64,000 bases of DNA from Candidatus Hermodarchaeum yapensis (GTDB lineage Archaea > Asgardarchaeota > Hermodarchaeia > Hermodarchaeales > Hermodarchaeaceae). Every line of letters begins with the position of its first letter. The stretch's first letter is position 1. Below are positions 1 to 47,514 of the stretch, piece after piece. The position numbers and the translations under genes were made by a program. The notes under the pieces are model-generated. The model did not search any database and was not told where the DNA came from. It worked only from the letters and a program-made list of their open reading frames with translations. Location: contig JAEOSK010000001.1 of the NCBI GenBank assembly GCA_016840405.1, positions 94,820 to 158,819 on the forward strand. Direction: 5' to 3'.

Positions 1-1020
1 TACAAAGGTGATGTGGGCTCGGCCACCGCCCAACAGATTGAACGCAAGAACAGTGAGGCCTGGCGTTCATTCTTCGCCCTCCTCTGATTAAAAACGAAGG
101 GACGACTTCCATCCCATATCAACTGCGTAGGTCCACCGGGCTACTGGAAGTATCGTCGCACCAATACACGGAAGCTCATCATTATCTTTCGCTGTGATTC
201 CTATCGATTTGACGAGGGCATATTATATCTCCCCAAAAAATTGACTGTTAAATGGCAGGGGAAGCCCAAATGGGTGGGTTGGACCAAACAGGGTCAGCTA
301 ACCATCCACTATGATAATGTTACTGGCAAGTGGTATGCCCGTCAACCAGTGGAGGTTGAACCTCCCCATCAACCGCTCTCGCATCGGAGAGCCTTTGTTG
401 GCCTGGGCGTGATTAATTTGCTGACCGTTGCCCTGGATGGTGCGTGGCAAACGTTGGTCTACAGTGGGCGTTCGGTCTTGGCGGATTGGTGGTATCTCTC
501 TCATCGGATTGATCGGTTGAAGTCTCTAGCAAAGACGATAAACCATCGGAAATCAACGCATCGGATCCGTCGGTTATTTCGTCGTCGTCTGCGGTTACGC
601 CAGTATGTGAATACGGTGGTTCGTCGGGCGGTAGCTGATTTGTGGGCGCACGGTGTGTCGCAGCTGGTGGTAGGGGATCTCACTGGGATTCTGGCGGTAA
701 AAAGTGGTGGGCGGAAGGCTCATGCGATGACACATAATTGCTGGAGTCATCGGTATCTTATGCAACGGATCACGGAGGTGGCAGAAGAATATGGTATTGT
801 GGTGGAACGGGTGGATGAGCGGGGCACTTCAAGTAAGTGTCCACGCTGTCGGTCGAAGCGAGTAACACGACTAGGTCGCCTGTTCAAATGCCAGGAGTGT
901 AGATTAGAAGCTCATCGAGATGGTGTGGGCGTAGTCAACATAGGGCTTGCTCAAGGCGCAGCGTTCCCTGGGGAAGTCGTTAACGGGGCAGTGGCATGCC
1001 CTTTGGAGGTCAGTGGATGA
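1..1020 (+). pseudogene. tnpB: IS200/IS605-family TnpB, 5'-truncated by the window edge and inactivated
   Basis: Frame 1 reads as TnpB from base 1 (SATAQQIERKNSEAWRSFF) with an in-frame TGA at 85-87. RuvC-I reads AFVGLGV (catalytic Asp appears as Gly); CPRC/CQEC zinc finger; RuvC-III HRDGVGVVNI. Confidence 0.9.
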
Positions 1021-1060
1021 CATCCAAGAATCTCCCGGCTTTAGCCGTGGAGAGTGTCAA
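971..1060 (+). mobile_element. IS200/IS605 right end / omega-RNA scaffold of the first tnpB element
   Basis: GAAT + hairpin (CTCCCGGCTTTAGCCGTGGAGAG) + terminal TCAA at 1057-1060, the IS608-type GR/CR pair. Homologous to 35277-35360. Confidence 0.85.
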
Positions 1061-1064
1061 ATTG

Positions 1065-1286
1065 TGACATCCTTTCCTTCCTTTTAGAAGGAGTTTCGGA
1101 CTGTTCCTTGCTGTTACACTCGTCGCCGAGGCCCGTTTAGCCCAAAAATTATCAGGTTCTGATGTTGCTCCGCCCCGCACCTGCCCCTTGTTCAGGGGAA
1201 TTTCTTGCACATGCCGGAGGGGGCATCATGTACGGAGATGCAGCCCTGCCACATAATGACTGGGGCAATAGTATTCCAGTCGGGCA
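1065..1286 (-). ncRNA. Unclassified structured RNA with group I intron-like core motifs
   Basis: Minus-strand TATA (TTTATA, 1317-1312) ~25 nt upstream; many helices including CUCG-GCGA-CGAG; R-like GGGCUAAACG and S-like AAGGAACAGUCC; no credible ORF. Confidence 0.5.
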
Positions 1287-1414
1287 TATTTTGAGCTGTA
1301 GCAAAAAATTCTATAAACCCCGTGATTCATCCCCAAGTACAGGTGGAGGGCTTCTCGCCGACAAGGTTAAATCAATTCTGCTTTTATTCCCTCCTTGTAA
1401 TTGGTGACTTCACC

Positions 1415-34987: not shown

Positions 34988-35360
34988 AAAGAATTGTGGT
35001 GAGAAAGTCCCCGATTTCAAGCGCGGGGATGAATCATGGAGTTTTTATAGATTTCCACCGAAAAACCATTGCGGTCAGCCGCTGACGGATCGTAATCCCC
35101 AGAACACCACGCTCCAAACCGCTCTCGGGGAGACCATCAGCAACATGGCATCCAGAATCAACGGGCACCAGACCCGTTCCCAACCGCATCCAACATCGAA
35201 CCCCTCATAGGGCTTGCACCAGTGATGACGGCGACCAAAGACGCGGTGACGCGTCTGCGGGCTCAGTTGTGAGGTGGAAGTCGGTAACGGGGTGGTGGCA
35301 CCCCCCGTGGAGGACCAAAGCCTCCACGAATCTCCCGACATCGGTCGTGGAGAGTGTCAA
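34988..35360 (+). mobile_element. tnpB-less miniature IS200/IS605 element (family of the element ending at 1060) with structured RNA interior and omega-RNA scaffold
   Basis: TTAC target at 34984-34987; AAAG guide at +17..+20 followed by the left hairpin; TATA 35042-35049; right end GAAT-hairpin-TCAA homologous to 971-1060. Confidence 0.88.
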
Positions 35361-44267: not shown

Positions 44268-45565
44268 TTTTATTAAAAAATTGGGAGATGATCCCGTCCT
44301 TCAAGGTGGGGAGGGAACGCGGAGTTCAAATACCCTATTGCCAACTTTAGAGATATGCTCAGAACCTTCCGGTATCGCCTCTACCCCAATCAAACGCAAC
44401 GTGCGCGAATCCGGAAGAACATCGACGCCTGTCGGTTCGTCTACAACTGGGCTCTGGAAATTACAAAGACTGCCTATGAGAAAGATGGGTCCAACCTGCG
44501 TTGGTTCGACTTGAACAACCGCCTTATCGAACTGAAGCAAGGCTACCCCTTTCTCAAAGATGCTTACTCCCAATCCCTACAACAAGCGGTTAAGCGGCTC
44601 AACCTAGCTTTCCAATATTTCATGCGCCACGTCTCGCAGGGTAAGGAACAGCCGGGCTATCCGAAGTTCAAGCGACGCAAGGCGCACCGACAGTCCTTTG
44701 ATGTTCCCCAGTTTTTCACCATCGACATTAACACTCAGCGCGTTTAGCTTCCAAAGATTGGAGCGGTTAAGGCAGTCTTCCATCGGCGGTTCTCTGGTAC
44801 ACCAAGAATGTGTACGGTTGTTTCGACCCTTACGGGTAAATTCTTCATCTCGATTGTAGTCGACGATGGAAATCCTCCTCCCCCTAAACCACAGGCGACG
44901 AACCAGACGTCGATCGGGATTGATGTGGGTCTGACGACCTATGTTACCATGTCCACCGGTGAAAAGGTAGAAAATCCTCGCCATCTACAAAACACACTGA
45001 AGCGTCTCCAGTGCCTGCATCGAAGGTTGAGCAAAAAAGTAAAGAGGAGTCGAAACCGGGAAAAAGCGAGACTGCGACTGGCCCGCTGTTACGAACGGGT
45101 TACCAATCAACGAGCTGATTTTCAGCAGAAGCTTTCGACGCGGTTGATTCGCGAGAACCAAGCGATTATAGTCGAGAGCCTTAACGTCAAGGGCTTGATG
45201 CGTAACCAGCGTCTGTCCAGGGCGATTGCCGATGTAGCTTGGTCGCGGTTTCTGGCGATGTTACGGTATAAGACCGAGTGGTATGGGGTAACGTTGATTG
45301 AGGTAGGGCAATTTGCACCCACGTCGAAGCGCTGTCATGCCTGTGGGTACCTCAATGAAGGGCTCACGTTATCGGACAGGGAGTGGACCTGTCCCTCCTG
45401 TCTTTTACCACTGGATCGGGATGTCAACGCCGCAAGAAATATTAAGATGATAGGACTTGGGTCCATCATTACACCGAGGGAACCTCGGGAAGAGCCTGTG
45501 GAGCTGTCAGCACTGGCTGAAGCGTCGAAGCAGGAAACTCCAACCATCAGGGCGGAGTAGTTCAC
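44268..45565 (+). mobile_element. IS200/IS605 (IS1341-like, tnpB-only) element, copy A
   Basis: Left hairpin CCCGTCCTTCAAGGTGGGG, tnpB, right end ending TTCAC at 45565; closely similar to copy B. Confidence 0.9.
44355..45560 (+). pseudogene. tnpB: TnpB with premature TAG at 44745-44747
   Basis: MLRTFRYRLYP N-terminus; GIDVGL, VESL, DRDVNAA intact; the TAG aligns with TGG in copy B. Confidence 0.92.
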
Positions 45566-45607
45566 TAACCACTCTTAATTGTCCTTGATCATCCTCAAGG
45601 CTCGGTG

Positions 45608-46144
45608 ATGACGGTGTCTGAAAAAGCATCCAAAACGAAAACGAAGACCACATCAAAAAAAGATGCTAGCAAGCCAAAGTCCAAATCTACCAGTAAACCA
45701 AAAGCAAAGGCAAAGGCGAAAACCACGAAAAAGCCTACGACGAAGAAGGCTCCGAAAAAGCCTACGACGAAGAAGGCTCCTAAAAAGACCACGCCGAAGA
45801 AACCTAAGAAAAGGCGCAAAACCAAAACCACCGTTGAGGCAAAACCAAAAAGAACACGTCCACGAAGGTTGCCATTGGAAACTCCAGTCAAAGGCGTTTT
45901 AATGAACTATCAACGAGGATCCGTTCGACAAAGAAACCAATACGGTTTGATCCAGCTTCAAGGTGTTTCTTCAATTTCTACAGCGGCCTCCTATATCGGT
46001 CGATCAGTCATACTCCATTTCAATGAACGAACCCAAAACCAAGGTCAAATCGTTTCAGTACATGGTAAGAAGGGCGTGCTCAGAGTGCGATTTCGCCGAA
46101 GGCTAGCCCCAGAAGCTTTGGCAAAAGAGGTTGTTGTCTTCTAA
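45608..46144 (+). CDS. rpl35ae: 50S ribosomal protein L35Ae (eL33) with long Lys/Thr/Pro-rich N-terminal extension
   Basis: KGVLMNYQRG, AASYIGR, GQIVSVHGKKGVLRVRF. Confidence 0.88.
   Translation: MTVSEKASKTKTKTTSKKDASKPKSKSTSKPKAKAKAKTTKKPTTKKAPKKPTTKKAPKKTTPKKPKKRRKTKTTVEAKPKRTRPRRLPLETPVKGVLMNYQRGSVRQRNQYGLIQLQGVSSISTAASYIGRSVILHFNERTQNQGQIVSVHGKKGVLRVRFRRRLAPEALAKEVVVF
45728..45781 (+). repeat. 27-bp tandem repeat x2 encoding KKPTTKKAP
   Basis: AAAAAGCCTACGACGAAGAAGGCTCC(G/T) occurs twice in tandem. Confidence 0.9.
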
Positions 46145-46222
46145 ATCAGGGAAGATCCCACCAAAACCCCTCTTTCTAACAATTATCTCATTATACAAGG
46201 CCAATTCAAGCTAGAATACTAC

Positions 46223-47514
46223 TTTTTGTTTTAAACTGCGAGAAGACCCCGTCCTTCAAGATGGGGAGAAATCGCGGACTTCAAATACCATAGTAAAGAA
46301 CCTATAGACATGCTCAGAACCTTCCGGTATCGCCTCTACCCCAATCAAGCACAACGTACGCGAATCCGGAAGAATATCGACGCCTGTCGGTTCGTCTACA
46401 ACTGAGCTTTGGAAATCACAAAGACTACCTTGGAGACAGATGGATTCAAACTAAGTTGGTTCGACCTGAACAACCGCCTTATCAAACTGAAACAGAATCA
46501 TCCCTTTCTCAAAGAGGCCTACTCCCAATCACTTCAACAGGCTGCTAAGCGGCTCCACCTGGCCTTCCAACATTTCTTTCAGTACCTCTCGCAGGGCAAG
46601 GAACAGCCAGGTTATCCGAAGTTTAAGTGACGTAAGGCACATCGGCAGTCATTTGACGTACCCCAGTTTTTTACTATCGATTTTGTCGCTCAACGCGTAT
46701 GGCTTCCTAAGATTGGTGCGGTTAAGGCAGTCTTCCATCGGCGGTTCTTTGGTTCGCCAAGAATGTGTACGGTTGTTTCAACCCTCATGGGTAAATTCTT
46801 CATCTCGATTGTAGTCGAGGATGGAAATTCTCCTCCACCGAAGGTTACGGACCAGAAGTCGGTGGGAATCGATGTGGGTCTGGCGACCTATATCACCTTG
46901 TCCACCGGTGAGAAAGTGGAGAACCCTCGACATCTCCAAAATGCACTGAAGCGCCTTCGATGTCTACATCGAAGGCTGAGTAAAAAAGAACGAGGTAGTC
47001 GGAATCGGGAAAAAGCACGGCAGCGACTAGCCAGCTGCTATGAACGGATCGGTAACCAACGGGCTGTTTTTCAGCATAAGCTCTCGATGAGATTGATTCG
47101 CGAGAACCAAGCGATCATGGTCGAGAGTCTTAACATCGGTGGCTTGATTCGTAACCGGCGTCTAGCTCAATTGATCGCCGATGCAGCCTGGTCTCAGTTT
47201 TTAGCGATGCTACGGTATAAAGCCAAGTGGTATGGAGTAACATTGATTGAAATAGGGCGGTTTGCACCTATGTCGAAGCGTTGTCATGGCTGTGGGCACC
47301 TCAATGAGAGACTCACCATGTCAGATCGAACTTGGACTTGTCCAGCCTGTCTTTTACCACTGGATCGGGATGTCAATGCCGCAATAAACATTAAGATGAT
47401 GGGACTTGGGTCCATCATTACACCGAGGGAACCTCGGGCAGGGCCTGTGGAGCTGTCAGCACTGGCTGAAGCGTCGAAGCAGGAAACTTCGCCAATCAGA
47501 GCGGAGTAGTTCAC
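46223..47514 (+). mobile_element. IS200/IS605 (IS1341-like, tnpB-only) element, copy B
   Basis: Same left hairpin and TTCAC right end as copy A; direct orientation. Confidence 0.9.
46310..47509 (+). pseudogene. tnpB: TnpB with premature TGA at 46403-46405 and 46628-46630
   Basis: Single frame throughout; the stops align with TGG and CGA in copy A; RuvC motifs intact. Confidence 0.92.

Follow-up and report, generated by a model that had tools for sequence, protein, structure and literature searches.

Identity, copies, and spread of the conserved element

Between a tnpB gene and asnS in the window (the 64,000-nt stretch of the Candidatus Hermodarchaeum yapensis genome analyzed here) lies a densely paired block, positions 1065 to 1286 on the minus strand. 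What kind of sequence is it? The original prediction was a noncoding structured RNA derived from a group I intron or, alternatively, an RNA of a class absent from the catalogs. We conclude with high confidence that positions 1064 to 1366 (minus strand) constitute a 303-nt gene-less IS200/IS605-type mini-transposon (PATE) of an Asgard archaeon. The fuller statement, that this PATE carries an RNA with a TnpB-type guide role, is one that we favor with moderate confidence. The dispersed repeat, the extent to position 1366, a closing helix, and the status of the RNA as mobile-element cargo, all described below, go beyond that prediction.

Window positions 1063 to 1372 recurred five more times in the same genome (G000), giving six copies of the 303-nt element with 79 to 84% identity, and these copies recurred separately from the neighboring tnpB part. 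A covariance model identified 23 element copies in eight of the 15 genomes of the genus, and covariance models placed the RNA body at ~50 sites in several Asgard families. Distant relatives of the RNA (E values of 1e-17 to 1e-7) were detected in other families of the phylum, and all five Borrarchaeum genomes carried them, with up to 10 copies each. Metagenome contigs supplied further copies, many at contig ends, which is where repeats tend to fall. Scanning all species genomes with a 15-base pattern lacked the specificity to add to this distribution, the matches being mostly due to chance and in bacteria.

The best-conserved block extended from 1064 to ~1288, almost the same limits as those predicted, and had a mean column identity of 83% across 20 aligned copies (1064-1288); a less conserved 77-nt tail continued to 1366. 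Open reading frames inside the element matched no Pfam family, one-base insertions or deletions between copies break the reading frames, and 303 nt is too short for a transposase. All copies examined were intergenic, in either orientation relative to the adjacent genes, and no conserved neighboring gene was found beside them. Six pairs of copies share a genomic site across species. Copies within one genome were often more similar to each other (92 to 96%, for example L022/L030 in G005 and L034/L007/L037 in G000, with a maximum within-genome identity of 95.6%) than were same-site copies of different species (76 to 91%). These similarities between sequences point to recent movement or gene conversion, in a genus that yielded hardly any tnpA gene.

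Insertion site and element ends

The boundaries of the element were read from an empty site. In the sister species G002 the region upstream of asnS is uninterrupted (...ACATT|TTAAAT...), whereas in G005 and G000 the site is occupied, with the element exactly between the two halves. This comparison indicates that the element, read on the minus strand, follows TTTAA and that it has neither a target duplication nor terminal inverted repeats. The target motif (TAM) TTTAA at 1367-1371 (minus strand) adjoins the left end and is host DNA rather than part of the element. It precedes the left end in 14 of the 20 aligned copies, in the Borrarchaeum relatives, and in autonomous IS605 elements.

The left end (LE; 1290-1366, minus strand) comprises 77 nt and is less conserved than the RNA body. 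An nhmmer profile of the LE also matched the left ends of resident tnpB elements (E values of 6e-5 to 0.05), and the PATE and these elements share the same order of features, namely a conserved start, a hairpin, a conserved spacer, and a TATA box, with the tnpB start codon of the resident elements lying ~25-30 nt after the TATA box. The subterminal LE hairpin (1331-1348, minus strand) has a 5-bp stem in the window copy; individual folds placed it at the same position in nearly all of 14 folded copies, with differing stem sequences. Elsewhere in G000, for example at C57:9313, C3:55692, and C9:483, the same LE and TATA box are followed by a different RNA start (GAGGUCC-type body), so that several unrelated RNA bodies seem to ride on one family of ends.

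At the other end, the subterminal right-end (RE) hairpin at 1075-1092 (minus strand) is also the last stem-loop of the RNA. It is supported by covariation, with double changes in five of its six pairs, and its stem is nearly identical to that of the RE hairpin of the Borrarchaeum autonomous IS605. The terminal ...TCAC is likewise the right-end terminus of tnpB elements in the same genome and of the autonomous IS605. The latter, which encodes TnpA (156 aa) and TnpB (428-437 aa), was present in G056 and G071. The flank immediately after the right end of two autonomous copies, L242 (~2600) and L241 (reverse strand), repeats approximately the first 10 bases of the LE, and this repeat may be a relic of an earlier insertion into that target.

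The same two genomes, G056 and G071, contain terminal-only mini-elements of ~46 nt (L213-L219), in which TTTAA is followed by the LE start fused directly to the RE hairpin and tip. The existence of such copies indicates that the 225-nt interior is dispensable for movement. Terminal-only versions with the core deleted are known for Haloquadratum PATEs (PMC3119063). Movement of the element would require a Y1 TnpA supplied in trans. No Y1 TnpA gene was found in the G000 assembly, which is 86% complete, and one was found in a single genome among the 15 of the genus; all four of the other RNA-bearing Asgard genomes have a tnpA gene. Each PATE feature that could be tested was present: no inverted repeats or target duplication, a target motif, two hairpins, a noncoding interior, and ends related to those of other elements.

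Promoter and fold of the RNA

An archaeal TATA box (TTTATA; 1312-1317, minus strand) lies inside the LE at a fixed spacing. Of 20 aligned copies, 12 had the exact hexamer and the others differed from it by one or two letters, and in all 20 it preceded the conserved RNA start by ~30 nt, the spacing expected of an archaeal promoter. The Borrarchaeum copies have the same layout, and in relatives bearing tnpB or tnpA the TATA box precedes the gene start. The conserved structured RNA body thus delimited comprises ~225 nt (1064-1288, minus strand), with a start predicted from the TATA box and an end at the RE boundary. Short T runs occur 3-6 nt past the right end in many copies and could cause an early stop of transcription, which would count against a guide read from the flank.

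The minus strand is the functional one, since the G-U pairs fit this strand only. Folding of the single sequence was marginal (z = -2.0 for the minus strand and -1.1 for the plus strand), and the support for the structure is comparison with homologs rather than single-sequence folding. Six helices were backed by covariation among 39 sequences from several families. In this alignment 93.5% of cells were paired, and 20 of 35 pairs showed changes on both sides; five of the six helices had been part of the model that made the alignment, and the closing helix had not. None of 500 shuffles reached this level, and slid controls scored 0.05-0.08, against 0.23 for the actual pairing. A naive all-against-all count of helices within the genus was too noisy for use.

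Helix P1 (1281-1276 with 1263-1258, minus strand) was paired in 95% of cases among the 39 sequences, with double changes in five of six pairs, and its loop contains an extra nested hairpin in relatives. Several of the helices in the original prediction were borne out. Its first hairpin, GACUGG/CCAGUC, was 93-95% paired with compensatory changes in sets of 20 to 39 homologs; the conserved hairpin CCCCU/AGGGG (1184-1198, minus strand) was 95-96% paired; CUCG-GCGA-CGAG, with its GNRA loop, was 98% paired and covaried across families; and the terminal hairpin UCCUUC/GAAGGA was 86-88% paired, with double changes in four to five pairs. The TATA box proposed at 1317-1312 was likewise retained in all 20 copies. 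Three other helices fared less well. The proposed outer "closing" helix, GCCCG/CGGGC, was only 66% paired, with one pair formed in just two of 20 sequences, and AUUAU/AUAAU reached 58%; neither is conserved. The helix CUGCAUCU/AGGUGCGG was 84% paired and had no double change. In some copies (L061 from G009 C43, and L069, L075, and L077 from Borrarchaeum) insertions of 57-75 nt sit in the CCCCU/AGGGG loop, where the RNA seems to tolerate expansion.

The pairing originally called "P7" is real as a helix. It joins 1147-1140 to 1101-1094 (1094-1147, minus strand), was 90-94% paired, showed a G-C to C-G swap in 14 sequences, and encloses the GNRA hairpin at 1130-1119 together with an A-rich strand. 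RNAalifold had instead paired the 5' GCCCGA with 1145-1140; this was replaced by the 1147-1140/1101-1094 model, which scores distant relatives 10-18 bits higher.

The helix that closes the RNA lay outside the original prediction. Its 5' strand, GUGGCA (1247-1252, minus strand), pairs with UGUCAC (1064-1069, minus strand), the last six bases of the element, which end in the presumed right-end cleavage motif TCAC. This helix (1252-1247/1069-1064) was 92% paired, its second pair being U-A in 24 sequences and C-G in 12, and it joins the last six bases to a segment 185 nt upstream. The scaffold is thereby shut right up to the transposon boundary. One resident tnpB family follows the same principle of tip pairing with its own tip sequence in six of seven copies, which is weak support because these copies are related.

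Group I introns and cataloged RNA families

The leading idea of the original prediction was a ribozyme of group I descent that stands alone, a degenerate IStron being the related variant considered here, and parts of its argument were sound. The P7-like helix, its enclosed hairpin, and the A-rich joining strand exist, and the local succession of a helix, a hairpin, the A-rich strand, a second helix, and a second hairpin is real, but pseudoknotted cores are also found in TnpB and Cas12 guide RNAs. A weak P3-like pseudoknot of 4 bp could form; one compensatory case speaks for it and several breaks speak against it. Group I introns can also ride on IS200/IS605 elements, as IStrons show, and IStron introns match Rfam group I models (PMC10690162), whereas none of these models matched the six family members searched, even at E values up to 1-10. 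Across the 39 sequences the element mostly terminates in C and in no case in G. The proposed outer helix is not conserved, the P7-like helix runs uninterrupted for 8 bp without the conserved bulge of the guanosine-binding site, and no P4-P6 domain was recognized in the RNA. The TATA box is inside the element, downstream of the left boundary; an internal promoter leaves no 5' exon and excludes the left boundary as a 5' splice site. The copies, moreover, lie between genes, in either orientation to their neighbors. We regard a group I origin as extremely improbable, and the original statement that the locus is not an IStron agrees with the lack of a group I model match, the internal promoter, and the intergenic copies.

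The fallback proposal of an uncataloged RNA fared better. No Rfam model matched anywhere in the window at the gathering threshold, and E-value searches of positions 850-1450 (E ≤ 10) and of the six family members (E ≤ 1) returned only chance matches to lncRNA models. The strong match to RNase P or SRP RNA that was to count against a new RNA was absent from both the window and the six family members, and the proposed search for homologs and covariation returned relatives in which six helices covary. The RNA contains a GGAAAAGUCC-like word, which we take to recall CR-I of RNase P; an RNase P-like reading was rejected, given the absence of a model match, the multiple copies, and a different pairing register. 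With the stand-alone Asgard group I ribozyme an attractive false lead falls away, and in its place stands a tested anatomy of boundaries, target motif, promoter, and six-helix fold.

A putative guide RNA and competing roles

We propose that the TATA box drives transcription of the scaffold, and that the transcript would continue past the right end into the adjoining DNA. Such a product would be a TnpB-type (omega-RNA) guide RNA with the neighboring host sequence as its guide, and a TnpB from another element would load it in trans. After excision of the element, TnpB would cut the vacated TTTAA site, and recombination would restore the copy. The genome contains ~28 tnpB loci, some of them beside TTTAA and several with full-length open frames, which could supply such a protein. 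Conservation stops at 1064, the right boundary, and the last 6 nt lie within a covarying helix. The 3' flanks differ between paralogs, which implies that there is no fixed target. PATEs "often encode omega-RNAs", which need TnpB in trans (PMC10055086), and the stem-loops of omega-RNAs coincide with RE hairpins (PMC10690162). In the omega-RNA of ISDra2, nucleotides -6 to -2 form a pseudoknot, the bases before the guide pairing with a distant segment (PMC10097598).

Other results bear on the partner of the RNA. An upstream tnpB in cis was found for none of the ~50 copies examined, including all seven in a 100%-complete genome, and this counts against a guide role in its simple form. The scaffold body showed no resemblance to the 28 tnpB 3' regions of the same genome, either by nhmmer or by Smith-Waterman alignment with shuffled controls, and similarity to tnpB 3' ends was restricted to the last ~35 nt (E value of 0.06 in a small database). 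No parent tnpB element with the scaffold was recovered by nhmmer searches of the genome, by the covariance model over 151 Asgard genomes, by tblastn around metagenomic and distant copies, or by applying the covariance model to autonomous IS605 loci. A regular-expression search for LEs upstream of intact tnpB genes proved overly strict and was abandoned. Since the body resembles none of the 28 tnpB 3' regions, the cognate TnpB cannot be named.

This orphan body, with no matching tnpB 3' end in either its own genome or the complete Borrarchaeum genome, also leaves room for a PATE whose RNA cargo has some other role, as a decoy or regulator of tnpB elements, as the partner of another protein, or as a processing ribozyme of a new type. 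The conservation of the body across several Asgard families, with ends that follow the local IS family, fits such a role as well. We think it unlikely on balance, though deserving of serious weight, because the scaffold ends in a helix exactly at the transposon boundary, as guide scaffolds do, and because the guide-proximal stem-loop is common to the PATE RNA and tnpB-bearing elements; no conserved neighboring gene accompanies the copies and no known ribozyme family matches the RNA. Quite improbable, in our view, is a host-kept family of stand-alone small RNA genes of mobile-element ancestry that has lost its mobility. It would account for the six same-site pairs of copies across species, for the better conservation of the RNA body than of the LE in four of the five syntenic pairs having both values, and for the near absence of TnpA from the genus. 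Against it, presence or absence varies between close species, with a clean empty site and the element in only eight of the 15 genomes of the genus; the nearest relative of a copy is often another copy of its own genome, with identity reaching 95.6%, and not the copy at the matching site of another species; the flanks, and hence any guide, vary from copy to copy; and many metagenome copies lie at contig ends in the manner of repeats.

Conservation and pairing could also reflect needs at the DNA level of single-strand transposition, or recent spread, with no functional RNA at all. IS200/IS605 elements do move single-stranded with folded ends, and DNA accommodates G-T pairs, which means that strand asymmetry by itself is no proof of an RNA. 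TnpA needs only the subterminal hairpins, however, and in the interior, which the ~46-nt copies do without, compensatory changes preserve six helices among families with only ~50-60% of their sequence in common. The TATA box at its fixed distance argues in the same direction, and we consider a DNA-only explanation very improbable.

The guide-RNA reading, which we prefer, admits an extension that we offer as speculation and judge unlikely to hold in full: a free-living family of guide RNAs may have spread through several Asgard lineages on gene-less transposon shells, borrowing local IS ends, promoter, and TTTAA while bringing a scaffold of its own that is encoded in cis by no tnpB gene. Such a family, if it exists, would either be a hyperparasite that reprograms the TnpB of other elements or form the RNA part of a split system, the nuclease gene of which lacks a guide of its own or encodes something other than TnpB. 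An archaeal, promoter-bearing PATE family whose scaffold is linked to no nuclease gene offers a clean case for studying the sharing of TnpB-type nucleases in trans.

The window copy and its surroundings

The prediction that the RNA abuts the end of a TnpB element holds as far as adjacency goes, and the adjacency is secondary. The neighbor is a tnpB-only IS of 1370 nt that begins 309 nt before the window, occupies positions 1-1060 (plus strand), and is not part of the PATE. It encodes the Pfam OrfB_IS605 domain and a Cas12f1-like TNB domain, with an in-frame TGA at 85-87. Its absence from the same site in the sister species G005 marks it as a later, unrelated insertion. Its insertion point was 3 nt past the PATE boundary, with the right ends of the two elements facing each other, and comparison with the G005 site lacking the IS identifies positions 1061-1063 as three leftover bases of the original flank between the two mobile elements. 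The presumed guide position of this IS is the reverse complement of the PATE right end. Its only close paralog in the genome (G000 C27, 61% identity) also has an internal stop, and on account of these stops the tnpB family looks dead.

Of the six copies in the genome, the window copy of the PATE has diverged most (nearest relative, 86.6%). It has the lowest G+C content (0.52, compared with 0.58-0.61) and carries G-to-A changes in the terminal stem, and the tip of the inserted IS now stands where its guide would have been. This copy is probably spent and no longer useful to the element.

The mechanically called asnS open reading frame starts at a GTG (1322) inside the mobile element, and homologs in the genus align only from ~1400. 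From the sequence, the true start is likely the conserved in-frame TTG at 1415 (or the GTG at 1427), ~30 nt behind a TATA-like run, and the annotated start should be shifted downstream of 1322.

The rest of the window is dense in IS200/IS605 relatives. Further LE-like matches or tnpB genes occur at ~16742, 35001-35360, 44283-47400, and 49520; they include two tnpB elements at ~44.3-47.5 kb and, at ~35.0-35.4 kb, a gene-less element of ~360 nt with a right end like that of the neighboring tnpB IS. Elsewhere in the genome, at C71:619-4212 (L039), the archaeal SSU rRNA model of 1478 positions spans 3594 nt, from which the 16S gene seems to carry ~2.1 kb of insertions (introns). The archaeal SSU model scored 1061 bits and the bacterial one 358 bits, identifying the genome as archaeal.

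Comparison with known systems

One close counterpart is the Borrarchaeum autonomous IS605 (L241 and L242), which shares with the PATE the TTTAA motif, a nearly identical arrangement of LE hairpin and TATA box, and a nearly identical RE hairpin ending in TCAC. It differs in carrying tnpA and tnpB and in its tip (...GTTCAC versus ...TGTCAC in the PATE), and its 3' region, which holds its own omega-RNA, did not match the PATE-RNA covariance model. IStrons, in which a group I intron is fused to an IS200/IS605 or IS607 element, likewise place a structured RNA within IS200/IS605 ends in tnpB-rich genomes, and their splice sites are the LE and RE, their introns matching the Rfam group I model (PMC10690162). 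The PATE RNA, by contrast, matches no model, lacks a terminal G, has its promoter inside the element, and occupies intergenic sites.

The omega-RNA of ISDra2 (PMC8612924 and PMC10097598) resembles the PATE RNA in several respects: a location at the right end, a scaffold that stops at the boundary, a last stem-loop that is the RE hairpin, pre-boundary bases that pair with a distant upstream segment, and a putative guide taken from flanking DNA, beside a 5' TAM at the vacated site. The PATE RNA differs in having no overlapping or preceding tnpB and in being approximately twice the size of the 116-nt ISDra2 scaffold. Beyond the terminal stem, it has no sequence similarity to known or resident omega-RNAs.

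The PATEs described from Haloquadratum walsbyi (PMC3119063) and Geobacillus stearothermophilus (PMC10055086) have in common with this element the lack of inverted terminal repeats and of target duplication, hairpins close to the termini that are akin to those of IS605-type elements, insertion beside a short fixed motif, and terminal-only derivatives of ~50 nt, and they often carry an omega-RNA for a TnpB encoded elsewhere. Here the host is an Asgard archaeon, the LE provides an archaeal TATA promoter for the RNA, and several Asgard families share the large (~225 nt), conserved RNA body. Because this body is untraceable to any searched tnpB 3' end, simple internal deletion of a resident element does not seem to have produced the PATE. 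PATEs, and also PATEs with omega-RNAs, were already known; what is new is an Asgard archaeal family of them.
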